Shown here: positions 4,646-50,521 of the stretch, one piece after another
How positions within the stretch are numbered: position 1 is the stretch's first letter
Layout of the letters: the number at the start of each line of letters is the position of its first letter
From: Candidatus Bathyarchaeota archaeon
GTDB lineage: Archaea > Thermoproteota > Bathyarchaeia > Bathyarchaeales > Bathycorpusculaceae
Length of the DNA stretch: 64,000 bases
Reading direction: 5' to 3'
Assembly (NCBI GenBank): GCA_963806535.1
Contig: CAWDYC010000003.1
Span: 224,001 to 288,000, forward strand
The notes under the pieces: model-generated
What the model was told of the DNA's origin: nothing
Database searches by the model: none
What the model saw: only the letters and a program-made list of their open reading frames with translations
Program-made: the position numbers and the translations under genes

Positions 4646-6478
4646 TTGGTGAACAACGTGTTTGGCTGGACCGGCAATTTTCTTAGAATAAATTTAAGTA
4701 AAAATCAAGCTGTTGCAGAGGAATACAAGCAAGATTTGGCCTTAAAATTTCTTGGCGGCAGAGGCTTCGCAATCAAAATCCTCTGGGACACCCTAAAACA
4801 GGGAACTGACCCTCTTTCACCTGAAAATAAACTGATCTTTGCAACTGGACCTTTAACCGCGATCGGTTTACCTAACAGCGGAAAACTTGTTGTTGCATCT
4901 AAAAGCCCCTTAACCGGCGGCTACGGCGATGGAAACATTGGAACATTGGCAGCCGTGCAAATGCGCAAGGCCGGTTACGATGCGTTGATAGTGGAAGGAA
5001 AGGCTGAGAGACCAGTAATAGTCAATATTGAAGATAAATCGTGTGAATTTGTAGATGCGAAGGATTTTTGGGGTTTAAACGCTTTTGAATTAGAAAAGCA
5101 ACTTAGGAAACAATTTCCTAGGACCACGGGCATTCTTTCGATTGGCCCGGCGGGAGAGAACCAAGTCAAATTTGCAAATGTTGTCTCTCAAGAGGGACGT
5201 GCAGGCGGAAGACCTGGAATGGGCGCAGTCATGGGCTCAAAAAACTTGAAAGCCATAGTTATTGAAGCCACAGGGCAAATACCACTTGCAGACCCAGAAG
5301 AGATGCAAAAGCTCGCTGCTGAAGGTTACCGAGAAGTACTCACAAAACCTCTCTACCAATTTTGGAAACGACAGGGAACAATGTCAACAGTAGAGTGGTC
5401 TCAGGAAAACAGTGCATTACCCACCTTCAACTATAGACAAGCCGTTTTCGACAAAGCTGAAGGAATTGGAGGGTTTTCCATGGAAAAAATTAAGGTATCA
5501 AACCGCGGCTGTCCTCAATGCAACATGACCTGCGGCAACGTTGTTAAAGACAGTGAAGGAAAAGATTCAGAGCTAGATTACGAGAACGTTGTGATGCTTG
5601 GCTCAAACATTGGATTTGGAGACCTCGCCAAAGTAGCTACTTTGAACCGCATGGCCGATGAGTTTGGGTTTGACGCTATTTCACTTGGAAACGTACTTGG
5701 TTTCGCAATGGAAGCCTCCGAGAAAGGACTGATTGCAGAGAAGATTGGGTGGGGAAAGTTTGAAGAGACTAAAGCAATGATTAACGATATTGCTTATAGG
5801 CGTGGTTTTGGTGCAGTTTTAGCTGAAGGTGTACAGGCTGCATCAAAAATCATTGGGCAAGGCTCAAGCGATTGGGCAATGCACATTAAAGGTTTAGAGG
5901 TTTCAGCTTATGATTGTCATGCGGCTCCCTCTATGGCTTTAGCTTATGGCACCAGCTCGATTGGCGCTCATCACAAAGACGCTTGGGTTATAACGTGGGA
6001 AATTATGGCTGGCAGAGAAAGTTATGACCCGGCAAAGATTGACCACCTCATTGAAACACAGCTTATCCGAGGCGGACTCTTTGAAGCATTAGTTGTCTGC
6101 CGATTCCCTTACAACTCGCTCGGCTTCGAGCTTGAATGGTACCAAAAATATTTGAAAGCAGCAACTGGAGTAGATTTCTCATTGCATAAGCTGAACGAGA
6201 TTAGCGATAGAATACTCAATTTGATAAGGGCTTTTTGGGTGAGGGAGTACAAGGAAAAATGGAGCCGAGATTTGGACGTCCCGCCGTTGAGATGGTTTAA
6301 AGACCCCTTAACTCAAGGCACATTAAAGGGCGCTATGCTTGATATTGAGAAATACAATGAAATGCTGACTGCTTATTATCAAAAAAGGGGTTGGAACGTG
6401 CAGGGAGTGCCTATGCCTTCTACTTTGCAAGGGCTAGGTTTAGTTCAAGAGGCCAAGGAACTTGAGGCTTACTTGTAA
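4646..6478 (+). CDS. aor: Tungsten aldehyde:ferredoxin oxidoreductase family protein
   Basis: FLGGRG, KSPLTGG, GRAGGRPGMGAVMGSKNLKA, CPQCNMTC, YYQKRGW motifs. Confidence 0.92.
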   Translation: MVNNVFGWTGNFLRINLSKNQAVAEEYKQDLALKFLGGRGFAIKILWDTLKQGTDPLSPENKLIFATGPLTAIGLPNSGKLVVASKSPLTGGYGDGNIGTLAAVQMRKAGYDALIVEGKAERPVIVNIEDKSCEFVDAKDFWGLNAFELEKQLRKQFPRTTGILSIGPAGENQVKFANVVSQEGRAGGRPGMGAVMGSKNLKAIVIEATGQIPLADPEEMQKLAAEGYREVLTKPLYQFWKRQGTMSTVEWSQENSALPTFNYRQAVFDKAEGIGGFSMEKIKVSNRGCPQCNMTCGNVVKDSEGKDSELDYENVVMLGSNIGFGDLAKVATLNRMADEFGFDAISLGNVLGFAMEASEKGLIAEKIGWGKFEETKAMINDIAYRRGFGAVLAEGVQAASKIIGQGSSDWAMHIKGLEVSAYDCHAAPSMALAYGTSSIGAHHKDAWVITWEIMAGRESYDPAKIDHLIETQLIRGGLFEALVVCRFPYNSLGFELEWYQKYLKAATGVDFSLHKLNEISDRILNLIRAFWVREYKEKWSRDLDVPPLRWFKDPLTQGTLKGAMLDIEKYNEMLTAYYQKRGWNVQGVPMPSTLQGLGLVQEAKELEAYL

Positions 6479-6503
6479 TTAGAAAAAGAAAAGTAGCCTC
6501 TTG

Positions 6504-7947
6504 TCAATACGACCTTGCGAAATAAACCATTTCTTTAGCAGTTTTTCCGCAGTAAACGCAGTTGGTTGTTGGCTCTTCTTTCTCGAAAGGTCGAACTCTG
6601 ATGGTTGCGCCTGTTTCTTCTTTAATTTTTGCTTCATCGTCTGCGCTACCGCACCATGCTGCCTTGACGAAGCCGCCTTTGTCGCAGAGGACTGATTTGA
6701 ATTCCTCATAGTTTTGGACAATTGTGGTTTTTTCCTGCATCAGAGCTTTGGCTTTTGCGAAGAGGTTATCCTGAATTTCAACAAGAAGTTTCTCGAGTGT
6801 GGCGGGGATGTCTGCTTCTTTAACGGGAGTTTTTTGACCAATATCACGCCTTACCATAACTACTTGTCCTTGCTTTAGGTCTCTTGGGCCAAGTTCGATT
6901 CTGACTGGAATGCCTTTTAGTTCCCACTGGTGGAATTTCCAGCCTGGAGTATACTCTTCTCTGTCATCTAAAATTACGCTGTAGCCTTTTGCTTTGAGGC
7001 TTTCAGCGATTTCTTTAGTTTTAGCTGCTATTGCGGCTTGTTCTGCGCTTTTGAATTGAATTGGAACAATAACAACTTGGAAAGGCGCAACTTTAGGCGG
7101 CATGATTAAGCCTTTGTCGTCGCCGTGAACCATAATCATAGCGCCGATGAGCCTTGTTGTGATGCCCCAGCTGGTCTGCCAAACGTAATGGTCTATGTTT
7201 GTCTTCGCCGATGTATTTTATGTCAAAGACTTTTGCGAAATGCTGTCCTAAATTGTGGCTGGTTCCCATTTGCAAAGCTTTTCCATCAGGCATCATTGAT
7301 TCTAACGCAGTTGTATAGAGTGCACCCGCAAATTTTTCGCTCTCGCTTTTAGTGCCAGTGAGTACTGGGATTGCAAGGTAATTTTCAATTATGTCCTTAT
7401 ACTCGCCGAGCGCATACATGACTTCGGCTTCCGCTTGCTCACTTGTAGCGTGCGCGGTGTGGCCTTCTTGCCAAAGAAATTCTCTTGTTCGCAAAAACAG
7501 TTTTGTGGCTTTTGTTTCCCACCTTACTATGTTGCACCATTGGTTAATCTTAATGGGCAAGTCACGCCAGCTTCGAACCCACTTGTTAAACGTATCATAC
7601 ATTATGGTTTCGCTTGTTGGTCGAACGGCCAGTTTCTCTTCAAGCGGTGTGTCACCGCCCTGAGTTATCCATGCAACTTCAGGCGTGAAACCCGCAAAAT
7701 GTTCTGCTTCCTTTTTCAGGAAGGCTTCAGGAATAAACATTGGAAAATACACGTTTCGGTGTCCGGTGGCTTTGATTTTTTGGTTTAGGATTTCTTGGAT
7801 TTTCTCCCAAACTGCGTAAGCGTCTTCGCGAATAATCATGCAGCCTTTAACTGGCGCGTAATCTGCAAGTCCAGCTTTCAGAATAACTTCTACGTACCAT
7901 TCAGAGAAGTCTTCGTTTTTCTTAACAGTAACCCCAGTATCTGACAT
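6504..7947 (-). CDS. proS: Prolyl-tRNA synthetase (archaeal type), split by an indel near 7190
   Basis: FSEWY, RPTSET, FLRTREFLWQEGHT, GTSHNLGQ, HGDDKGL, C-terminal FARSY across two ORFs. Confidence 0.95.
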
Positions 7948-8054: not shown

Positions 8055-8207
8055 TTATCGTCTGAAGAATTTCTTTTTCGGGAAGTCTTTGCATTCATAG
8101 ATTCTAAGTTGTCTTTGAGGTTCAATGCGGCATCTTTTGCGTGCGTTTTTTCGTCTTATCAGTGGAGCAAGTTGAAAGAAAGGGCATTTGGAACAGAGTG
8201 TGCTCAA
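8055..8207 (-). CDS. Small basic Cys-containing protein (50 aa), not in the ORF track
   Basis: TTG-start MSTLCSKCPFFQLAPLIRRKNARKRCRIEPQRQLRIYECKDFPKKKFFRR, 12 nt downstream of the permease stop. Confidence 0.35.
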   Translation of the reverse strand: MSTLCSKCPFFQLAPLIRRKNARKRCRIEPQRQLRIYECKDFPKKKFFRR

Positions 8208-8219
8208 GGTTTCTCGTTC

Positions 8220-9428
8220 CTACCTTGTCATCATTTTTCGGAATACCGGCAGTGCGATCGCGATCATGACTATGCCGAAGGCGATGAGGACGAGGAGGTC
8301 GGTGGATATTTGAGGTATCCCTGCGCCCAGCACCATGACTTTTCTTAGAGCATCTGAAGCGTATGTTAAGGGCAGTGCTTTGCTTATGTCCTGCATGTAC
8401 CAGGGCATCTGCTGTATGGGGAAGAACACTCCCGACAGGAACATCATTGGGAACATCAGCGTCATCATGAGCATCTGCGCGGTTTCCTGGTCTTTAGTGA
8501 ACGATGTTATTACTATGCCCAAGCCCACGAAGCTGAACACGCCGAGCAGCAGCAGCGCAAACACCAGCAGCAAGCTGCCCTGTACAGCGACTCCGAATAT
8601 TCCGATGGCTAACCCCAAGATTATAAGACCTTGGATTAAGCCTCGGGCCGTCTGCGCTCCAGTCTTACCCAGCAGGATGGAAAGTCTGTTTACTGGTGCA
8701 ACCATCATGCCGTCCATCGTTCCGATTTCCTTCTCCTGCGAGATAGCGACAGGTAAACCTGTCATGACACTCATCATAACGGTCATAGCCATTATGCCCG
8801 GCGCGATGAAGTCAAAGTAGCTCGGGTGACCTGAAATTACACCTTGAGTTTGTACATTAAAGGGCTGTATCACTGCAAGGGGGTTTGTAACTGTTGAATT
8901 CAGTGTTTGAACGTTGTGTATGGCTATCTGTTGACCCATTGCGTTGAATACACCGCTTAATGCGGCTTGAATTGTCGCAGATATCTGGGGGTTTGATTCA
9001 TCGGTGACTATTAAGAGGGTGCTTTGTTGCCCCGTTAGCATGCTTTGGGAGAAGTTGCTGGGTATTACGATGCCGCCTTCAAGGTCTCCACGCTGTACCA
9101 TATCCTTGAGGCTCGCTGTGCTTGACACGTTAGTTATTACGAGCATGTGTGTCTGATCGTTGATTGCTTCCAAGCTCTGGATGAACCCTCCATGAGTCGT
9201 GTTTGACATAAATGCCCCGCTGAAGCCTGAGTCCTCGTTAACTATTCCAACCTGCAAGTTGCTTATGGTACCGTTGGATGGGTAGATGAATCCAACCATA
9301 ACCATCATGAACAATGGCATGACGATTAAGAGCACTAATCCAAGTCGGTTGCGAAATAGTTCAGTTAAGTCTTTTTTAGCAATTCTTAAGCTATGCTGTA
9401 AAATAGTTTGTGCGGTCATGTCTATCAC
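8220..9428 (-). CDS. ABC-2 type exporter permease
   Basis: EKEIGT, FLSGVFFP, LPLTYA motifs; six TMs plus extracellular loop. Confidence 0.92.
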   Translation of the reverse strand: MIDMTAQTILQHSLRIAKKDLTELFRNRLGLVLLIVMPLFMMVMVGFIYPSNGTISNLQVGIVNEDSGFSGAFMSNTTHGGFIQSLEAINDQTHMLVITNVSSTASLKDMVQRGDLEGGIVIPSNFSQSMLTGQQSTLLIVTDESNPQISATIQAALSGVFNAMGQQIAIHNVQTLNSTVTNPLAVIQPFNVQTQGVISGHPSYFDFIAPGIMAMTVMMSVMTGLPVAISQEKEIGTMDGMMVAPVNRLSILLGKTGAQTARGLIQGLIILGLAIGIFGVAVQGSLLLVFALLLLGVFSFVGLGIVITSFTKDQETAQMLMMTLMFPMMFLSGVFFPIQQMPWYMQDISKALPLTYASDALRKVMVLGAGIPQISTDLLVLIAFGIVMIAIALPVFRKMMTR

Positions 9429-38841: not shown

Positions 38842-40142
38842 TTGACAGTAAAGACCGAAAAAGACTTGCTGGAATTCGAAAGCGGTAGAAACTGGAAACC
38901 ACATTTACACAGCGAACACACTAAGCGGATTTTCTTTAGGCATTTAGAAAAATATTCGCAATGGGCAAAATGAATCCTGACGAATTGATAAATTTTAAGA
39001 TTGAAGGTTTGAAAGCTGTAGCTACAGAAAAAGAGTTTCAAGCTGAACGGCTATTAGAAAAATATCTGAGAGAATCAGGTATGACTCAATCTGTACAGTT
39101 TGAAGCTAAGAACGCCATAATCAGCTTTTACAAGCATAATTGGCGAAACCTTAACCCTGAATGCGCTAAAGACGTTGAACCACAAGAAGCAAAGATAAGA
39201 ACCCCAAAAATAGAAGATATTCAACTGCTTGAAAGCAACTGCACAACTGCAAGAGATAGAGCATTGACTTGGTTTTTCCCATCAACCAGTTTTAGAGTAG
39301 GAACATTAACCAAGTTGCTGAGAAGTGACCTAAAGCCAACAGGTGACAGCGAAGTTCCTTATTATTTGGAGATTGAAGCTAAGCGGCTTAAAGGTTCTGG
39401 AATCGGCAAATACAAAGGTTTGAAACAAATTACTTTCGTTAACAGCTTTGTTTGGGCTAAAATGATTGATTACTTCGCTGAAGCTGAAAGAAGAGGTTTC
39501 CATCTGATTGAGGATTCACCGCTTTTCATAGGGTACAAAGGTCACTTTACTAAAGAAGAAAGAAAACTTGCAGTTAAACCCAAAAAGGTTAAGGCAATCA
39601 CTGAAGGCGCAATCAATAACACTTATGACAATGCATCGCTTGCAGCATGGAAAGATTTAGAGGAAAAACGCTTTTCTCCACATGACAACCGTGATGTACT
39701 ACAGAATGCTTTAGAAAATGCCAATGTCAACGCTAACATGATAGCTCCAATGCTAGGGCACAAACCTAAAAACGCTGTAGACTTCCATTATTCAAGTCAC
39801 TTATGGCAAGAATTGCTTTTAAAGTATAAACAAGCCTTGCCTTATTTACTGCCTATAACAGTTGAAAAAGTTAAAGCTGAATTAAACGACACAGAAACCG
39901 AATTACATCAAACCAAAAAAGAATTAACCGAAACAAAAGAAGAAGGCAAAAATCAGCAAAATAAAATTAATGCTTTAGAGTCAATTATACTTATGACTAT
40001 GCCCAGAGAACAATTAGAACAATTAGTTAAGGCAAAACTTGAAGCAATGCCAAAATCGGATATATGCATGGCTGTTGAAGAAGGCAAACCACTAAGCGAA
40101 TTAACAAGAGAAGAATTAATTGAAATATACCATAAACTATAA
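38842..40142 (+). CDS. Tyrosine recombinase/integrase with C-terminal coiled coil (indel near 38970)
   Basis: Catalytic set FRVGTL (R), PHDNR (HxxR), LGH, FHY; an upstream frame from TTG 38842 supplies the N-terminus. Confidence 0.9.
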
Positions 40143-40563: not shown

Positions 40564-41136
40564 CTATTGATTAACTATTACTCTATTGTGTTTTCTGGGA
40601 TTTTTGAGCCATGACCTACCGCATGACCGACAATTCCACATTATACCTTTTGAAGCTACGTTACTACTATTGCATTCTATACAGTTTGGGTTAGTTGTTT
40701 GTGGTTTAATTGCCTCTGTAAACCCTCTCTTTTGCTGTTCAAATTCGTTAAATGCTGTTGGGTAACGCTCTCTCCATAGTTCCTTTAAGAAGTGATAGTT
40801 CGTTAAAATTGCCGTGTATTCTGGGCTACCGTTCAAATCTGCTCTTTCAAATTGAGCGCCTATTTTACATAAAAGCGATAAGTACCGTTCATAATCGCAA
40901 CTGTCAATTAAAAATATTTTAGCAAATTCACGAATAGACGCTTTTTGTTCATCATTTAGGGTTATGTATCGCTCAGGTATTGTTAAATTCGTAAAATCAA
41001 AATCCCTCAGTACCTTTGCGTATTTTGACTCAAATAATTTGAAATATTGTTCACTATCACGGATTTTACTGCTATCAATATCAACGTAACTTTTTAATTC
41101 TGTTTTAAGCCAAACAATCAAATTTTTATCATACAT
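40564..41136 (-). CDS. Hypothetical protein with C-terminal Zn ribbon
   Basis: CIECNS...WNCRSCGRSW. Confidence 0.75.
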   Translation of the reverse strand: MYDKNLIVWLKTELKSYVDIDSSKIRDSEQYFKLFESKYAKVLRDFDFTNLTIPERYITLNDEQKASIREFAKIFLIDSCDYERYLSLLCKIGAQFERADLNGSPEYTAILTNYHFLKELWRERYPTAFNEFEQQKRGFTEAIKPQTTNPNCIECNSSNVASKGIMWNCRSCGRSWLKNPRKHNRVIVNQ

Positions 41137-41139
41137 GGT

Positions 41140-41284
41140 TAATCATCCCATTTTTTCTGCAATCTTCGCAAATTGTTAATTGAACATAATCGTATTGTTC
41201 GCCTTGTCTCCAACTTTTACCGCAAGTAATACAAACCCATAATGTTTTTTGGCTAAGTTGTTTTGTGCAAAGTGAACTAACCAT
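41140..41284 (-). CDS. Small Zn-finger protein, frameshifted; 3' end approximate
   Basis: WVCITCGKSW...TICEDCRK. Confidence 0.5.
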
Positions 41285-41437
41285 TTAGGCATCATCCCAG
41301 TTTTTAGTGTTTAAACAGCATAAGCCTGAGCATGAGCAACAAACAAGCGCACCGCAATTTTCGCATTTTAACACAGCTTGATTTTTATTGCATACGCTAC
41401 ATGAGGTAACTGCTTTAACTTCGCATTCGTTAATCAT
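41285..41437 (-). CDS. Small Cys-rich protein, frameshifted
   Basis: MINECEVKAVTSCSVCNKNQAV/KCENCGALVCCSCSGLCC; overlaps the stop of the upstream gene. Confidence 0.55.
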   Translation of the reverse strand: MINECEVKAVTSCSVCNKNQAVLKCENCGALVCCSCSGLCCLNTKNWDDA

Positions 41438-41838
41438 GCTTTAACCTCAATAGCAATCATATCGCCTTTGCGAACATCAAGCCCAGAATAACTTTTAGCA
41501 AAACGATTATTACAACAAAAACATCTGTAAATTTCTTTATAACCAATTTTCTTTTCTAATTCTGTGTGGTCATGGTTGCAAATTGGGCATTTAATAGGTT
41601 TAATAAAATACGCTGGGTTAACTTCAATATTTGATTTAGTAGTTTGTTCTATTGCCCGTTTGTATTTCAGTTTATTTTTAAAAAGGTAATTAGCGTTACA
41701 TTGTGGTGAGCAAAAATAACTGTTTTTTCGTTTTGCTTCAAACGGTTTATTGCAATTTTTGCATGGCTTCATTTCAACCATAATAGTTTTAGGCAACCAA
41801 ACTTTTTGGTGATTAGTGCATTTTTCGTATTTACTCAT
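41434..41838 (-). CDS. Double Zn-finger protein
   Basis: CKNCNKPF...FCSPQC and CPIC...CFCC. Confidence 0.75.
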   Translation of the reverse strand: MSKYEKCTNHQKVWLPKTIMVEMKPCKNCNKPFEAKRKNSYFCSPQCNANYLFKNKLKYKRAIEQTTKSNIEVNPAYFIKPIKCPICNHDHTELEKKIGYKEIYRCFCCNNRFAKSYSGLDVRKGDMIAIEVKA

Positions 41839-41865
41839 TAATCAAAACCCCGTATGTGTCGAATG

Positions 41866-42123
41866 CTGTTTGAAGGCTGGGCAAACTCGTAAGGTCATGG
41901 TGTAACCTAAAATTAGCCCAGCCAAAACAGACCGTTTCCCAGCATTGAGTTGATACCCTAAACAAAGCTGGGTAACTATGAAGTAGGCTTGCACCAAAAG
42001 CCGAAACTTTGAAGGTGTAAGCCATCATCCCCGTGTGAGATGACTTGGAAATTCGCCCAGCTACAGAATATGCAAAGAAAAGATGAGTAAACCTTGCATT
42101 GGTGAATTTTTCTATAGCTGGGC
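41866..42123. other. Five contiguous stem-loops (candidate structured RNA or ssDNA signal), overlapping ORF 41831-42133
   Basis: Stems at 41866-41930, 41934-41976, 41986-42023, 42025-42043, 42055-42123; three use CCCAGC/GCTGGG. Confidence 0.65.
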
Positions 42124-42251
42124 ATATGGGCATTTTTGTTAGCTCCCTAAAGATTTTGGCTGTAAGCTATTTGACCGTAACTAAAGCCTTCTGACTCGCT
42201 GTAAGACGCTTTTCCGCAATAAATCAAATAATTGCCTTTAGCTTCAAGGTC

Positions 42252-42584
42252 TTTAATATATATTTGTGAATTAATATATTTTTATTTTTATAAAAAAAAA
42301 TAAAAAAAATATAAAATAATAAATATAAATTATAGAAAAATTAAAAAAATATTATAATTATATAAAATAAAATAATTAATTTTTAAAATAATATTAAATG
42401 TAAAAGAATTAAAAAGATTAGATATAAAATAGAATTAATAATAAAAAAATAAATTTAATTTTTTTTATTAAATTAATTTATTAATGTTAATAATTGTTAA
42501 TATATAATTATATAATAAAAAAAAATAAATAAAATGAATTAAAATAATAGATAATAAATAGTAAAAAAGAAAATTGAAATTAAA
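42252..42584. other. Almost pure A/T tract with no C on the + strand (possible consensus artefact)
   Basis: No C between 42251 and 42585; it overwrites the 5' end of the next gene. Confidence 0.7.
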
Positions 42585-42937
42585 CAATATCAGAAAACAG
42601 GGGCAAACACCTGTGTAGAGATTGCGTAAAAACATGTTCAAGTTGCGGTAAAAACCTTCCAATGGCGCATTGGTTTGGTCAGTCATACACTTCTAACGCT
42701 TTTGCTCAGAGTTTAGAAAAACAAGGAAAGCCTTGGGTAGGCTCAGGGGTTTGCTTAGAATGTTATAATAGTAAAATAGCTCAAGAGGAAAAAGAACAAA
42801 GGCTAATTAGAGACGCACAGTTAGCACATGCAAAAGAAATACTTGAGACACCAACAATCTGGGAATGCGGGTATTGCAAGACAATAAACAAAGGAAAGTT
42901 TTGTTCAAACTGCGGTAGCTCAAGAAAAAAAGCATAA
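42560..42937 (+). CDS. Multi Zn-ribbon protein; 5' end lost in the A/T tract
   Basis: HLCRDCVKTCSSCGK upstream of the called ORF; CLEC, WECGYC, FCSNCG. Confidence 0.7.
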
Positions 42938-43298: not shown

Positions 43299-43729
43299 CA
43301 TCCACACAAATTTTTAGCATTCAAAAACACTCCGAGGGGGGTCTGGCATAATTTTGAGCCTTTTTTAAGCCAAAAATTTCAGAGGTTAACCAAACTTATT
43401 TAAAAACTGCTTTTACCCCACTTTTGAAAAGTTTCAATAATGGCTTAAAAAAATCAAATAATAGCCAATAATCAACAAAAATCAAAATCAATTCTGAAAC
43501 CAATAAAAATGGATTAATGAATTCCATAAAATAATTTGTCAGAAATTAATCGTAGAAAAAACCCCTATGTATGCCTTAAAAAATGACGAAAAATAACCTC
43601 AATTTAGCCTTATTTTTACCATTAAACTGTTGAACAGATATGCGTTTGTTAATTGCGCTTCTCAAAAAGGTTTAAAAAACCAAAAAACGATGCTTTACCC
43701 ACTATATTACGAAATTAAGGTGAAAAAAA

Positions 43730-44845
43730 TTGGAAACAACCAAAAAAGAAACGGGAAATTCAGATTCAGGGTTTAGACCTGACTCTGACAAATTAGATTA
43801 CAAAACGTTGGTAAAAAAAATTCAAGAAAACGGCGACCTTGTTATTTTAGGTCAAAAAGGTACGTGTAAAACTACGTTACTGCAACATCTAAGCAGAGAA
43901 CTTAGAACCGAAAACAACAATCACGTTATAATATTTGAAACCTTTCCGAAATGGATTCATGAATTCGATTCTATACCCTACATGATAATAAAAGACAGCG
44001 ACGTACAATCAACGGAAAACACGCCTTATCTGGAAGAAGACAAAAGCATTATTCAATGGTCAAAGGATTTCAAAGTTTTAAACGCAGAAATTGTTAAAGA
44101 TTTCTTGAAGCAAAACAAAGATTGCATATTCTTAATCGAAGTCGAAGACATGGAGCGAATAAGCGCATTCATGACGTTTGTTATTTATACAATCTACCGT
44201 AAACAATACCTCAGAGCTAAAGCTGGAAACTTGGAGACAGTTAACCAAAATTATTGGTTTCTCTGTGAAGAAGCCCATAACTTAATGGATTCAACGGTTT
44301 TAGCCAAAAAAACCTTTAACAAATTGCGAAAGATACAAAATGAATTCCGAAACCTGAAAATGCATTTAATTTGCGTAGCTTTGAGACTCCAAGATTTAAG
44401 CCCAAAAATAAGGAGCAAAATGTCTATCGTGTTAAGCAGAGTTAGCCTTGACGACTATCAATTAAAAGTTAGAAGCCTACTGAGAAATTCAAAGTTTAGA
44501 GACATAATTACAGAACTGCCAAAAGGTCAATTTATTTACCCTGAACTTGACCTTAAACTGACTACAGAACCGTTTAAGCAAATTGGCACACCAACCGAAT
44601 TTAAGCCAAAACCTACAGAGAAACCAAAAGAGCAATTCGTGGATGCATGGAAACCACAAATAAGGAAATTTAACCCAATCCAGAAAATTTTAAGGAAAAT
44701 ATTTTTCTGGCTACCAGATAGCAATAGTAATTATACAACAAATGACGGTGAAACTACAACAGAAGATAACAGCAAAGAAGATAGCCAAGGTGACGGATTA
44801 ATGACCTTAGATAATGGAGAAGAATTGTTTCCAGAAGAACCCTAA
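43730..44845 (+). CDS. P-loop ATPase of FtsK/HerA-like type
   Basis: Walker A GQKGTCKT, Walker B WFLCEEAH, NEFRNLKM...LRLQDLSPKIRS; acidic tail; AGGTGA SD. Confidence 0.75.
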   Translation: METTKKETGNSDSGFRPDSDKLDYKTLVKKIQENGDLVILGQKGTCKTTLLQHLSRELRTENNNHVIIFETFPKWIHEFDSIPYMIIKDSDVQSTENTPYLEEDKSIIQWSKDFKVLNAEIVKDFLKQNKDCIFLIEVEDMERISAFMTFVIYTIYRKQYLRAKAGNLETVNQNYWFLCEEAHNLMDSTVLAKKTFNKLRKIQNEFRNLKMHLICVALRLQDLSPKIRSKMSIVLSRVSLDDYQLKVRSLLRNSKFRDIITELPKGQFIYPELDLKLTTEPFKQIGTPTEFKPKPTEKPKEQFVDAWKPQIRKFNPIQKILRKIFFWLPDSNSNYTTNDGETTTEDNSKEDSQGDGLMTLDNGEELFPEEP

Positions 44846-44975: not shown

Positions 44976-46010
44976 ATGAAAAACATGCCGAAAAGAAGCA
45001 AAGAAGATGGCAGTTACTGTTTAGGGATAGAATCTTCAGCAGACGATTTCGGTGTCGGTATAGCTACTTTCAATGGAGAAATTCTTGCCAACAAATACGA
45101 CAGCTACATACCAGTTGAAGGCGGAATTCACCCAAGAGAAGCAGCAAGACACCACTCGGAAGTTGCGGACAAAGTGCTAAAAGAAGCTCTGAGTTTTGCA
45201 GGTGTAAAACCAAACGACCTATCGGTTATAGCGTTTTCGCAAGGTCCAGGCTTAGGGCCTTCTTTACGTACGGGAGCCACTGTTGCCCGAGCTTTAGCTT
45301 CTTACCTAAACATCCCGCTTGTAGGAGTAAATCATTCTGTAGCGCATATTGAGATTGGAAAACTAAAAACTGGCGTTGTTGACCCTGTAACCCTTTATGT
45401 TTCAGGAGGCAACACCATGGTTACAGCTTTTGAAGCTGGACGATACAGAGTTTTCGGAGAAACCTTAGACATCGCCCTTGGAAATTGTCTTGACGTTTTC
45501 GCTCGCGAAGCAGGTTTAAAGCATCAAAAAGGTGTACCACTTGGGGCTGCCGTTGAGAGGTTAGCGGCTAAAGGAAAAAATCTGGTTTCTTTGCCTTATG
45601 TTGTTAAAGGTATGGATTTGTCTCTTAGCGGCTTGTTAACATCGGCGACAGCTCAATTGAAAAGTGGAAATTGCTGCTTAGAAGATTTGTGTTACAGTCT
45701 TCAGGAGCATGCTTTCTCAATGGTTACTGAAGTTACTGAGCGAGCGTTAGCACATACAGAAAAGAGAGAGGTTTTGCTAACAGGCGGCGTAGCAGCCAAC
45801 AAGAGATTACAAAATATGCTTCAAATAATCGCCGAAGAACATGATGCCCGTTTCAATGTGGTTCCACTTGAGTTTGCCACCGACAACGGCGCCATGATTG
45901 CCTGGACAGGCGTTTTAGCTTACAAACATGGTTTGGTTACACCGTTGGATACGAGTTATGTGAAGCTTCGGTGGCGAGTTGACAAGGTGGATGTGCCATG
46001 GATAAATTAG
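44976..46010 (+). CDS. kae1: KEOPS subunit Kae1 (t6A synthase)
   Basis: LGIESSAD, GGIHPREAARHH, NHSVAHIE, VSGGNT, DNGAMIA; start ATG at 44976 or 44985. Confidence 0.96.
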   Translation: MKNMPKRSKEDGSYCLGIESSADDFGVGIATFNGEILANKYDSYIPVEGGIHPREAARHHSEVADKVLKEALSFAGVKPNDLSVIAFSQGPGLGPSLRTGATVARALASYLNIPLVGVNHSVAHIEIGKLKTGVVDPVTLYVSGGNTMVTAFEAGRYRVFGETLDIALGNCLDVFAREAGLKHQKGVPLGAAVERLAAKGKNLVSLPYVVKGMDLSLSGLLTSATAQLKSGNCCLEDLCYSLQEHAFSMVTEVTERALAHTEKREVLLTGGVAANKRLQNMLQIIAEEHDARFNVVPLEFATDNGAMIAWTGVLAYKHGLVTPLDTSYVKLRWRVDKVDVPWIN

Positions 46011-46658
46011 CTGAACAAACGCTGTTCAAGAAGGGCGCCGAAGCCAGCCTATACCTTACAGATTGGCATGAAAGAAAAGTCATCGTAAAAGTGCGAATCC
46101 CAAAAAGATACCGTCCTGAGGCATTGGATAAGCAGATAAGAAGTTTCCGAACGGTACACGAACCGCAGTTAATGCATGAAGCTAAAGCCGCTGGGGTACC
46201 AACACCGCTGATATTCATGGTAAATGTTCCTCAAGCTTCAATCACCATGGAATATGTGGAAGGGCAGCAGATCAAGCAATTGCTAAACAAAGTTCCCAAA
46301 GATCAACGTCAGAAATTATGCCTAATAATCGGTGAGTTAATTGGCTAAACTTCACAGCCATGGCTTAATTCACGGCGACTTAACAACTTCAAACATGATT
46401 CTTAGCCCTGAAGGCAAAATTTTCTTTGTTGACTTTGGCTTAGGAGAAAGAAACATTGAAGTGGAGGCACAAGGAGTGGATTTACATTTGATGAAACGAG
46501 CGCTACAAAGTACACATTACCAGTTCTGGGAAGAATGCTTCAAGAACATCCTGTGTGGTTACTCATCGATTTTGGGACCTGAAGCAGCCGAAAATGTTTA
46601 CGAGAAAATAAAAGAGATAGAGAGGCGTGGCAGATACATTGAAGAAAGAAAACAATAA
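45998..46658 (+). CDS. bud32: KEOPS kinase/ATPase Bud32, indel near 46343
   Basis: KGAEA, HGDLTTSN, DFGL, ERRGRY. Confidence 0.93.
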
Positions 46659-47305
46659 CCAAAACTGCAGTTTTAATGGCAAAGTTGTCTTTTTTGCGAC
46701 AGGCAACATCAACAAATTCAACGAAGCCCGCAGTATCCTAAGCCCGTACGGAATTTCAGTCGGAATGCTACGCATGAAAGGAGATGAGATACAAAGTGAC
46801 AGCCTTAAAGAAATTGCAGAAACCAGCGCCAGAAACGCGCATAAACGTACCAAATTGCCTATTTTTGTTGAAGACGCAGGTTTATTCATCGATGCTTTAG
46901 GCGGCTTTCCTGGTCCATACGCTGCTTACGTTTACAAAACAATTCACAATAGTGGCATACTCAAACTCATGGAAAATGTAGCCGACAGGCATGCAAAGTT
47001 CAAGTCAGTTATAGCTTACATGTGACCAGACTCTTTGTGAACCAAAGTGTTTTTGGGGAGAATCGAAAGGAGAAATAACCCAGACCGAACGCAAACCTCA
47101 GGGAAAAACCCCTTTTGGCTTTGACCCAATTTTCCAGCCGATCGGAAGCAATAAGTCATTTGCAGAAATGACTATTCTTGAAAAGAATGGTTTTTCCCAT
47201 AGAGCAATGGCTATACGGAAATTTGCTGAATGGTACCAAACAGCAAATGCTAAAACCTTTAATCAAGCAGTAAACAAAATGTTATATTATCCTTCTTTGC
47301 ATTAA
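46627..47305 (+). CDS. rdgB: XTP/dITP diphosphatase (Ham1), frameshifted near 47020
   Basis: ATGNINK, EDAGL, GFPGPY, FGFDPIF, SHRA. Confidence 0.9.
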
Positions 47306-49936: not shown

Positions 49937-50162
49937 ATACAGCGACCAAAAAATGGCTAAAGCAGTTGCAAACGCGATTTCTCCAGATAACTTCAAAACG
50001 CCACCTGGACTTGAAGTTAAAACCGCAAAAGAAGATAAAAAAGTCGTGACTCAAATCCATTGTGAAGGCAAACTTGCTACGTTCACCGCCACTATAGATG
50101 ATTTACTTTTTAGCGCTTCAACGGCGGAAAAGACTCTTAACACAATAAGCAAAATGAAATAG
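49914..50162 (+). CDS. pcc1: KEOPS subunit Pcc1
   Basis: AISPDN, ATIDDLL; position after rps15-recJ. Confidence 0.85.
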   Translation: MEAKITLEYSDQKMAKAVANAISPDNFKTPPGLEVKTAKEDKKVVTQIHCEGKLATFTATIDDLLFSASTAEKTLNTISKMK

Positions 50163-50170
50163 CTAAACTG

Positions 50171-50318
50171 GAAAAGAAGAAGAAGTGTGCCCCCACAGCT
50201 TTTCTTCTTCTTTCTGAAGCAGAGAAGAAGTAGAACGCGGTGCTACTGCCAACTGTCCTTCTTCTTCTATCAAAGAAGAACAACACCCGATGCAACCACC
50301 AACCGTTGGCGTTCTTCC
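50171..50318 (-). ncRNA. Candidate three-hairpin small RNA with GAAGAA/UUCUUC stems
   Basis: Three ~50-nt units; TATA-like AGGTTTATC about 29 nt upstream on the minus strand; pyrimidine-rich 3' end. Confidence 0.4.
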
Positions 50319-50521
50319 AGATAGCATCTATTCAGGTCCTGATAAACCTCGGAACTAAGTTATGGGAAAAAAGAACTCAACAGTAACAAACCAAAGCTTA
50401 ATTACTACCAAAAAAAACACAAACTCTTATCGAACATTTGCTTTTAATCTTAAGCCCTAAATACATCGTTGATTACTGTAAAGTAAATAAATAAGGGATC
50501 ACAACATAAAAGAAACTTGAC

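Follow-up and report, generated by a model that had tools for sequence, protein, structure and literature searches.

A candidate structured leader RNA ahead of a zinc-ribbon operon in a Bathyarchaeial mobile element

Introduction

What is the function of a row of stem-loops that lies beneath an open reading frame (ORF) and directly ahead of an operon? The question is raised by a locus in a 64,000-nucleotide (nt) stretch of DNA from Candidatus Bathyarchaeota archaeon (contig CAWDYC010000003.1, positions 224,001 to 288,000), the whole of which is referred to here as the window. An integrated element of about 6 kb, which runs from a tyrosine integrase to a P-loop ATPase (approximately 38.9–44.9 kb), carries a block of five hairpins, H1 to H5 (41866–42123). 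A first-pass annotation of the window had offered two explanations for this block, namely an element-encoded non-coding RNA (ncRNA) or leader switch, and a single-stranded DNA (ssDNA) origin, transfer or packaging signal.

Gene control is almost unexplored in the mobile elements that inhabit Bathyarchaeia, which are abundant uncultured archaea of sediments. We consider that there is about an even chance that the block is a cis-acting structured leader RNA that travels with the module of zinc-ribbon genes downstream of it. The block matches no described RNA family and is most likely a new structured leader RNA. This provides a candidate RNA–protein pair, consisting of a 61–69-nt RNA and four small, otherwise uncharacterised proteins of the zinc-ribbon module. 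It also corrects the annotation, as gene finders would label the ORF over the block a hypothetical protein. The reach of the finding is limited to the two elements in which the motif occurs.

The hairpin block and its fold

The block lies directly 5' of the zinc-ribbon operon (40564–41838, minus strand, four genes), 27 nt from the ATG of a gene for a 134-amino-acid (aa) protein, and a 100-aa ORF (41831–42133, minus strand) covers all of it. In the minimum-energy fold of the minus strand it forms five adjacent stem-loops. The first of these on the minus strand is H5 (42055–42123, 69 nt). It is followed by H4 (42024–42044), a short hairpin of 8 bp including 2 G-U pairs; H3 (41986–42023), with 14 bp; H2 (41934–41976), which uses the CCCAGC/GCUGGG stem again and has a mean pair probability of 0.85; and H1 (41866–41930), with 25 bp, 3 G-U pairs and the GGCUGGGC/GCCCAGCC stem in flipped order. 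In the same direction, the linkers are 10, 0, 9 and 3 nt long.

The structure in the block is real and statistically exceptional. Folded as RNA, the minus strand reached −99.4 kcal/mol, compared with −62.5 ± 4.3 kcal/mol for 200 dinucleotide shuffles (z −8.59), and the plus strand reached −81.2 kcal/mol, compared with a mean of −60.8 (z −4.47); on neither strand was any of the 200 shuffles as good. In a scan of 550 segments of 260 nt each between 30 and 52 kb, the segments of the block were the top three outliers of the minus strand after GC correction, at −3.8, −3.7 and −3.2 standard deviations. When the hairpins were folded singly on the minus strand, the energies of H5, H4 and H1 were reached by none of 300 shuffles, that of H3 by two and that of H2 by five. 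Mean pair probabilities across the five local hairpins were 0.85–0.98, the centroid structure was approximately the minimum-energy fold, and a model at 60 °C still folded the block, at −51.0 kcal/mol.

The CCCAGC/GCTGGG hexamer occurs six times within 260 bp, which is the densest cluster of the 2.95-Mb genome; the runner-up has 3 copies, and the genome mean is 0.33 per kb. The copies alternate in orientation and are irregularly spaced (40, 22, 29, 88 and 62 bp). The GC content of the block is 44.2%, compared with 34.2% in the remainder of the element. The first-pass annotation was therefore correct in its description of the locus: the five stem-loops are all at the positions it gave, the six hexamers and the higher GC content were recovered, and the block does lie immediately 5' of the operon and under the ORF.

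Contigs from a public DNA sequencing run cover two parts of the region, 41786–41946 (1 difference) and 42139–42256 (0 differences), and leave the middle of the block uncovered. Given these matches, an assembly artefact is excluded at least for the two ends. Arms and flanks within the block recur as direct repeats of 12–13 nt (D6, 92% identical; D7, 83% identical), which suggests that the clamp formed by these arms was duplicated locally. As a separate observation, two genomes from a different genus of the same family have a conserved protein-coding gene (with the peptide ...CCLKAGL...) to which 41855–41882 gives a near-exact match of 21–27 nt; this match is probably due to chance.

The functional strand

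The first-pass annotation had noted that G-U wobbles favor the plus strand for H3 and the minus strand for H5, and had left the functional strand unassigned. Both local preferences were recovered. H3 is the sole hairpin that is more stable on the plus strand (−17.4 vs −14.1 kcal/mol), and it holds the single A-C mismatch of the block (42018/41991); H5 reaches −28.8 kcal/mol on the minus strand (z −7.95) vs −21.3 on the plus strand. However, the whole five-hairpin fold favors one strand. It contains 8 G-U pairs on the minus strand, vs the one A-C mismatch in H3 that the plus strand would read as G-U. H1 (−29.7 kcal/mol, z −6.85, vs −22.6) and H4 (−8.2 kcal/mol, z −3.4, vs −3.0, z −1.0) are also more stable on the minus strand. 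By this count of eight to one, the functional strand reads best as minus, which is the sense of the downstream zinc-ribbon operon. The bias is moderate, as two of the eight G-U pairs are terminal or close a loop, and DNA parameters narrow the gap between the strands (minus −46.2 vs plus −41.8).

Conservation of H5 in a second element

H5 has a basal stem of 14 bp, which opens with a GCCCAG/CUGGGC clamp, and an upper stem of 8 bp. Its unpaired parts are an internal loop of 10 nt on the 5' side (AAAUUCACCA) and an apical loop of 14 nt (UUUACUCAUCUUUU). A model built from this single sequence scored 33.3 bits (E 7.2e-6) against a 61-nt hairpin in another genome, G019 (L062 5099–5159), which lies on the strand of the adjoining genes. 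The G019 hairpin belongs to an element of about 10 kb that encodes an archaeal-type integrase, a ribbon-helix-helix protein and a HerA-like ATPase.

The two hairpins are approximately 80% identical over 50 nt of local alignment and have the same architecture, and the G019 hairpin has a folding z of −4.82. Both keep the CCCAG/CUGGG clamp and the internal loop UCACCAAU on the 5' side, and their apical loops share 12 of 14 bases, with the consensus UUUACYCAUSUUUU. Loop identity is about 85–100%, while the neighboring 190-aa proteins are 46% identical. The stems, on the other hand, have changed. The closing pair is G-C in one sequence and A-U in the other, one G-U pair is replaced by G-C, the upper stem differs in length by one G-C pair, and the basal stem has 14 vs 9 bp, with both arms shortened in step. 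In the two-sequence comparison 39 of 39 cells pair, and four independent supporting stem events were counted.

The genomic position of the hairpin is also kept. The last genes of the long minus-strand operon of the G019 element encode zinc-ribbon proteins of 73 and 107 aa and a homologue of the 190-aa protein of the window (E 2e-66). The hairpin lies 31 nt ahead of the 73-aa gene, in the sole sizeable gap of this operon (140 nt, intercistronic). The operon is one-directional, and the AT-rich divergent region of that element is 2.7 kb away. Furthermore, the indels between H5 and the G019 hairpin are 2, 1, 1, 1 and 1 nt long, none a multiple of three, and no frame carries a conserved peptide. 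That the stems are kept, the frame is lost and the G019 stretch is intercistronic is direct evidence that a non-coding hairpin tied to the zinc-ribbon module has been conserved. The first-pass annotation had suggested weighing covariation against codon conservation among homologues; this comparison gives kept stems and a lost frame, with a single homologue that covers H5, so that a structure kept through compensating change and a position kept relative to the genes apply to H5 only (n = 2).

The hairpin is present in both of the two elements with a zinc-ribbon/190-aa module whose upstream DNA is visible. Two further contigs with the module (L023 and L024), one locus each from metagenome and genome collections searched with the 190-aa alignment, end inside zinc-ribbon genes, approximately 300–340 nt upstream of the 190-aa gene. 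Relatives of the 190-aa protein are 46–57% identical, one of them on an 8.5-kb contig of another source.

Two further observations concern H5. The first bases of the 134-aa gene (41830–41838, AUGAGUAAA) are fully complementary to nine apical-loop bases (42083–42091), and this 9-nt duplex has an energy of −9.2 kcal/mol. A complement of at least 9 nt arises in 6% of shuffled leaders and the match is lost in G019, so that pairing of the H5 loop with the 134-aa start is a weak lead. In addition, on the minus strand of a second element of the same family in the same genome (L022, G000:C4:59500-71500), 27 of 33 bases at 6462–6515 are identical to the H5 core, inside a 60-aa zinc-ribbon ORF. The stem is lost there (13 bits, E 1.4), and the match may be due to chance or may hint at the origin of H5.

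Searches for relatives of the block

No family among the 4227 models of Rfam was recognised: no match in the 64-kb window reached the gathering score, and in 41400–42700 there were two chance-level matches (E 3.5 and 3.6), the best scoring 19.3 and 12.8 bits vs thresholds of 52 and 37. Within its own genome, the block with its flanks (41840–42260) is present once, with no second copy. DNA searches gave no match to the block in 40 relatives, and in 400 other genomes of the class they gave matches of 20–35 nt only, in 10 genomes. The two best of these class-wide matches were within a conserved protein-coding gene and were set aside as chance or a captured scrap. Phage and plasmid collections contained no match to the block.

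Three covariance models were also used. A model of H2 and H1 (R1) recovered only the block itself in 120 genomes of the genus, plus one match at E 0.75. A model of H5 alone (R2) gave nine weak matches in the genus genomes (E 0.017–0.96), all of which were discarded, five of them being one conserved sequence with many non-standard pairs; under its strict filters, this run missed G019. The two-sequence model (R3) found only the genome of the window (G000) and G019 among 120 genus genomes and 15 chosen genomes. The H5 core pattern had no match in viral contigs, and neither the two proteins (134-aa protein and ATPase) nor the two alignments (190-aa protein and ATPase) matched anything in them. No description of an element of this kind was found in a full-text literature search or in passages of PMC10848311.

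A proposed cis-acting leader RNA

Four things are observed: the hairpins, their bias towards one strand, a weak coding signal in the ORF, and the conservation of H5 together with its position. From them we infer transcription of the leader, a protein partner and a regulatory effect, as follows. The minus strand between 42260 and 41800 contains no run of 5 or more T (the longest is 4). As there is no such run between an A/T-only tract (42257–42585) and the start of the 134-aa gene, transcription would read through into the operon, with a leader of about 390 nt if it begins where the tract ends. The block would then be part of a long 5' leader of the minus strand, transcribed together with the zinc-ribbon operon.

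H5 would be the conserved RNA motif of this leader, defined by the CCCAG/CUGGG clamp, the internal loop and the apical loop. Stems that vary around invariant asymmetric loops are the pattern of a protein-recognition hairpin. The unpaired conserved loops could form the recognition surface, most economically for a zinc-ribbon protein of the module itself, and binding would set the translation or the stability of the downstream cistrons, which would amount to feedback control. H4 to H1, which would be specific to the element and derive partly from copied clamp arms, would contribute further stems for binding or a very stable domain at the 5' end. A role in cis is favored because the hairpin accompanies zinc-ribbon genes and not the ATPase or an AT-rich region. 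The first-pass notion of an element-encoded ncRNA or leader is thus retained as far as a structured, non-coding leader on the minus strand is concerned, with H5 kept in a second element, and is unsupported as far as a switch is concerned.

Several points weigh against the cis-acting leader. H5 is known from two sequences, too few for a statistical test of covariation, and the model-fitted alignment slides the upper stem by one base, so that its count of 8 two-sided pair changes is inflated. H4 to H1, which make up three quarters of the block, are without counterpart in the G019 element, and neither a covariance model run on 119 genus genomes nor a DNA search of 400 class genomes found a homologue of them. 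Without the two G-U pairs that are terminal or close a loop, the strand count falls to 6 to 1, which is not significant. The G019 hairpin is entirely Watson–Crick and folds about equally on both strands (−25.3 vs −24.7), so that the strand argument comes from the window alone. A TATA-like box lies 10 nt upstream of the G019 hairpin and, if it is used, transcription would start within the 5' arm. None of the public RNA sequencing runs is listed as holding the stretch, and the protein partner of H5 is pure conjecture. Finally, the 100-aa ORF has a plausible GGGAG, 9 nt ahead of its ATG, and the stop codon of this ORF overlaps the 134-aa start by 8 nt (ATGAGTAA).

We also considered a bolder form of the leader reading, in which an H5-type hairpin and the zinc-ribbon/190-aa genes are a self-contained RNA–protein module that moves between Bathyarchaeial mobile elements. 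The conserved loops would serve as an address for a zinc-ribbon protein encoded in the module. In the element described here, this address would have been multiplied into a stable five-hairpin RNA with possible effects outside its operon, for instance as a decoy or scaffold or, in the way of a packaging RNA, together with the FtsK/HerA ATPase. This remains a long shot.

Alternative explanations

The rival that survives best, although we consider it unlikely, places the function in DNA. The block would be a cis element, serving either as an origin of replication or as a locus of the FtsK/HerA-type ATPase for recognition, packaging or transfer. Its active form would be hairpins, extruded or single-stranded, or else the six repeats of GCCCAGC beside an unwinding tract. 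The uniqueness of the hexamer cluster in the genome fits this idea, as do its position about 130 bp from the unique 330-bp A/T-only tract between divergent operons and the DNA-translocase fold of the ATPase. Related elements are also rich in hairpins between divergent modules (L020 5385–5940, z −4.46; L022 6085–6285, z −5.0). Moreover, compensating changes would preserve a DNA palindrome as well as an RNA stem, and ssDNA tolerates G-T pairs, so that the strand bias is compatible with ssDNA.

However, four loci with ATPases 64–78% identical to that of the window, in three other genus genomes and in a second, degraded copy within the same genome, have no hexamer cluster (0–6 scattered copies per 8–12 kb) and no DNA similarity to the block. 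In G019, as described above, the hairpin is inside a one-directional operon and 2.7 kb off the AT-rich divergent region. No HUH Rep, relaxase or primase was found among the 18 ORFs of 36.9–49.9 kb scanned with Pfam and PHROGs, a scan that small unannotated ORFs may escape. The alternating orientation and irregular spacing of the hexamers are unlike iterons or translocase guide repeats, the loops and not the arms are the best conserved part, and the A/T tract itself is possibly not authentic. Guide repeats such as KOPS or clt consist of a short motif in one orientation that is common to elements with related translocases; in the window, no consistent orientation for FtsK/TraB-type guide repeats was seen, and the cluster is missing from the four loci with related ATPases. 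These findings weaken the proposal of an ssDNA origin, transfer or packaging signal in the first-pass annotation.

The next rival, for which we see little likelihood, shares the structural evidence with the leader reading. It holds that the leader yields a stand-alone stable ncRNA that acts in trans, for example as a decoy or scaffold for a protein of the host or the element, or as a packaging-RNA partner of the ATPase. The stability of the block at 60 °C, its 44% GC within an element of 34% GC and the conservation of the hairpin loops are in accord with such an RNA. Against it, there is no oligo-T after the block and runs within the block do not exceed 4, so that no defined 3' end is predicted. 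In both elements the hairpin is directly 5' of zinc-ribbon cistrons, which fits a role in cis better, and the lack of a listed RNA run counts here as well.

It is improbable, in our judgment, that only H5 is functional and that H4 to H1 are a neutral palindromic accretion, produced by local duplication of clamp arms. The missing homologues of H4 to H1 and the 12–13-nt direct repeats of arms and flanks speak for such an accretion. Nevertheless, each of these four hairpins beats its shuffles, H4 and H1 again place their G-U pairs on the minus strand, and clean, non-competing local stems are not expected from chance duplication.

The weakest rival, which we regard as very improbable, is that the 100-aa ORF is a translated gene, possibly a leader peptide coupled to the next gene, and that the hairpins are secondary. 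It draws on the GGGAG motif and the overlap with the 134-aa start already mentioned, and on the length of the frame, which stays open across the block, from 9 nt ahead of H5 until 35 nt beyond H1. However, the sole match of the ORF among 5.8 billion proteins was itself, and it matched neither Pfam nor PHROGs. Its codon log-odds score of −0.061 is exceeded by 98.9% of 791 true coding segments (mean 0.119) and falls within the spread of 547 spurious ORFs of similar length (mean −0.094), although the codon test alone is not decisive because small Cys-rich neighbors also score low. The residues K, E, N, I and D together make up 15% of the product vs 25–46% in neighboring genes, and the GC content at third codon positions is 0.42 vs 0.25–0.36. 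A frame open for at least 95 codons arises in 7% of dinucleotide shuffles of the stretch, and in G019 the homologous stretch is intercistronic and the frame is lost. Given the lack of homologues, the codon score and the openness of shuffled frames, the ORF is unlikely to code and is probably spurious.

Relation to known RNA and DNA elements

We next compared the block with described classes. The first-pass annotation had proposed a switch, on the grounds that six hexamers allow alternative pairings. No alternative fold was found within 8 kcal/mol, and forcing one hexamer arm open costs 8.1, 17.6 or 22.1 kcal/mol, so that the pairings do not compete. Because the fold is well defined and lacks a competing alternative, a riboswitch or leader switch is unsupported. 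The comparison of a ligand core across homologues covers the single homologue, for H5 alone. Archaeal terminators and attenuators depend on oligo-U, and no run of 5 or more U occurs in or after the structure (42260–41800, minus strand). The ends of an IS200/IS605 element or a TnpB guide-RNA scaffold do not fit, as there is no tnpA or tnpB in the neighborhood and the block is single-copy in the genome. An integron attC array does not fit either: the hairpins are 0–10 nt apart without cassettes, and the integrase is at the border of an integrated element. GCCCAGC/GCTGGGC does resemble the attC core at 6 of 7 positions, which serves as a lead only. A 20-mer spacing scan for a CRISPR repeat mimic found no repeat array in the 12 contigs of the genome, which is 92% complete, so that arrays may be unassembled. 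No tRNA was found in H5, and a tRNA-like reading is unsupported.

Two other candidates were examined and rejected. The internal-loop motif UCACC, considered by inspection as an anti-Shine-Dalgarno sequence, fits the AGGUGA of the G019 gene and not the GGGG of the window. A remnant of a zinc-ribbon gene in the block was sought by tblastn of 12 small proteins, and the best E was 0.02 in a 471-nt database.

Operator hairpins in mRNAs, such as the coat-protein operator of MS2 and PP7, the gp43 and RegA sites of T4 and the site of archaeal L1 autoregulation, are among the closest parallels. Like them, H5 is a 5' or intercistronic mRNA site that keeps its loop bases while its stems vary, and it is encoded beside its presumed targets. 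Unlike them, H5 does not overlap the next start codon but lies 31 nt (G019) or 216 nt (window) away, it has a larger size (61–69 nt, two stems), it is followed by four more hairpins in the window, and its binding partner is putative. The block also resembles stabilising stem-loops of operons, in that it is very stable, has no terminator tract and lies at the 5' end or between cistrons. However, such stem-loops need no conserved loop, whereas the loops are the best conserved part of H5.

In filamentous phages (f1/M13), an intergenic cluster of hairpins serves as origin and packaging signal, and phi29 has a packaging RNA. The block likewise groups several hairpins side by side in a small mobile genome, one whose genes include a DNA-handling ATPase. 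In contrast to these phages, the ATPase has the FtsK/HerA fold of a double-stranded DNA translocase, no ssDNA replication protein was found among the 18 ORFs, the hairpin goes with zinc-ribbon genes and not with the ATPase, and elements with close ATPases lack the block.

The surrounding element

The tyrosine integrase (38961–40142, plus strand; PF00589, E 5.2e-6, just under the Pfam cut-off) has 83% DNA identity to the integrase of an element at the same Kae1 site in another genome, G091. The zinc-ribbon operon on the minus strand encodes proteins of 134 aa (41434–41838), 50 aa (41285–41437) and 51 aa (41129–41284), all zinc-ribbon proteins, and the 190-aa protein with a C-terminal zinc ribbon (40564–41136). 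The structural model of the 190-aa protein has a mean pLDDT of 53.8, too poor for a fold search, and NCBIfam adds nothing.

Upstream of the block, the presumed leader (42134–42256, minus strand) contains an imperfect hairpin at approximately 42173–42252 and the GGGAG that precedes the 100-aa ORF. The A/T-only tract lies between this leader and a divergent operon on the plus strand. It is 329 bp long, with 4.9% GC and one C on the plus strand, and it is the sole region of the genome below 12% GC in 200-nt windows. It is presumed to be the promoter region. A contig of the public DNA run leaves the window sequence exactly at 42256 and continues with 78 unrelated letters, which were found nowhere in the window or the genome. 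Because the tract is unique in the genome and the contig departs at its edge, the tract is doubtful; an artefact of assembly, an insertion and a variant element are all possible explanations.

A short plus-strand operon separates the tract from the FtsK/HerA-type P-loop ATPase (371 aa, 43730–44845, plus strand), which abuts Kae1. The ATPase profile matched HerA in the PDB (E 7.3e-9), and its structural model (pLDDT 72.7) matched HerA chains in Foldseek (E 5e-7). In a viral library, it matched the Corticoviridae NTPase and the PH1 ATPase, which are of the viral packaging type. Elements with related ATPases, the G091 element among them, have only the integrase and the ATPase in common with the element of the window, and no part of 40.35–43.4 kb aligns with them. 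Direct repeats of att sites were sought at the element borders, and the best match was 10 nt. The window also encodes Kae1, Bud32, FtsJ and an S15 protein with the archaeal/eukaryotic N-domain.

Some minor observations concern the related elements. Ahead of the ATPase gene, the non-coding stretch 43400–43487 shares 72% identity over 90 nt with the corresponding position of an element in genome G093 (L019 7270–7358), and it is the only conserved non-coding DNA between these ATPase-related elements. In L022 the ATPase (8148–9187) is split into two ORFs. The hairpin-rich region of this element at 6085–6285 (z −5.0 on the plus strand, −4.6 on the minus strand) includes a perfect hairpin of 16 bp just 5' of a small zinc-ribbon ORF. 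The row of hairpins between divergent modules in L020 (G091:C9:178500-190500) includes two with an identical 7-nt loop, ACUAACA, and different stems (CCCG/CGGG and GGUUCG/CGAACC).

In the window itself, Bud32 is broken up between overlapping ORFs of 116 and 105 aa (45998–46658), while the G091 gene is intact at 231 aa, and a Ham1-type gene is short (132 aa, 46627–47025), while the G091 gene is intact at 224 aa. These breaks look like frameshifts and may be sequencing errors that affect other ORF calls. Finally, the non-coding stretch 49940–50520 (minus strand), between a gene of the DHH family and the next ORF, contains GAAGAAGAAG/CUUCUUCUUC stems and is a secondary fold outlier, with a z of only −2.16 across all 581 nt.

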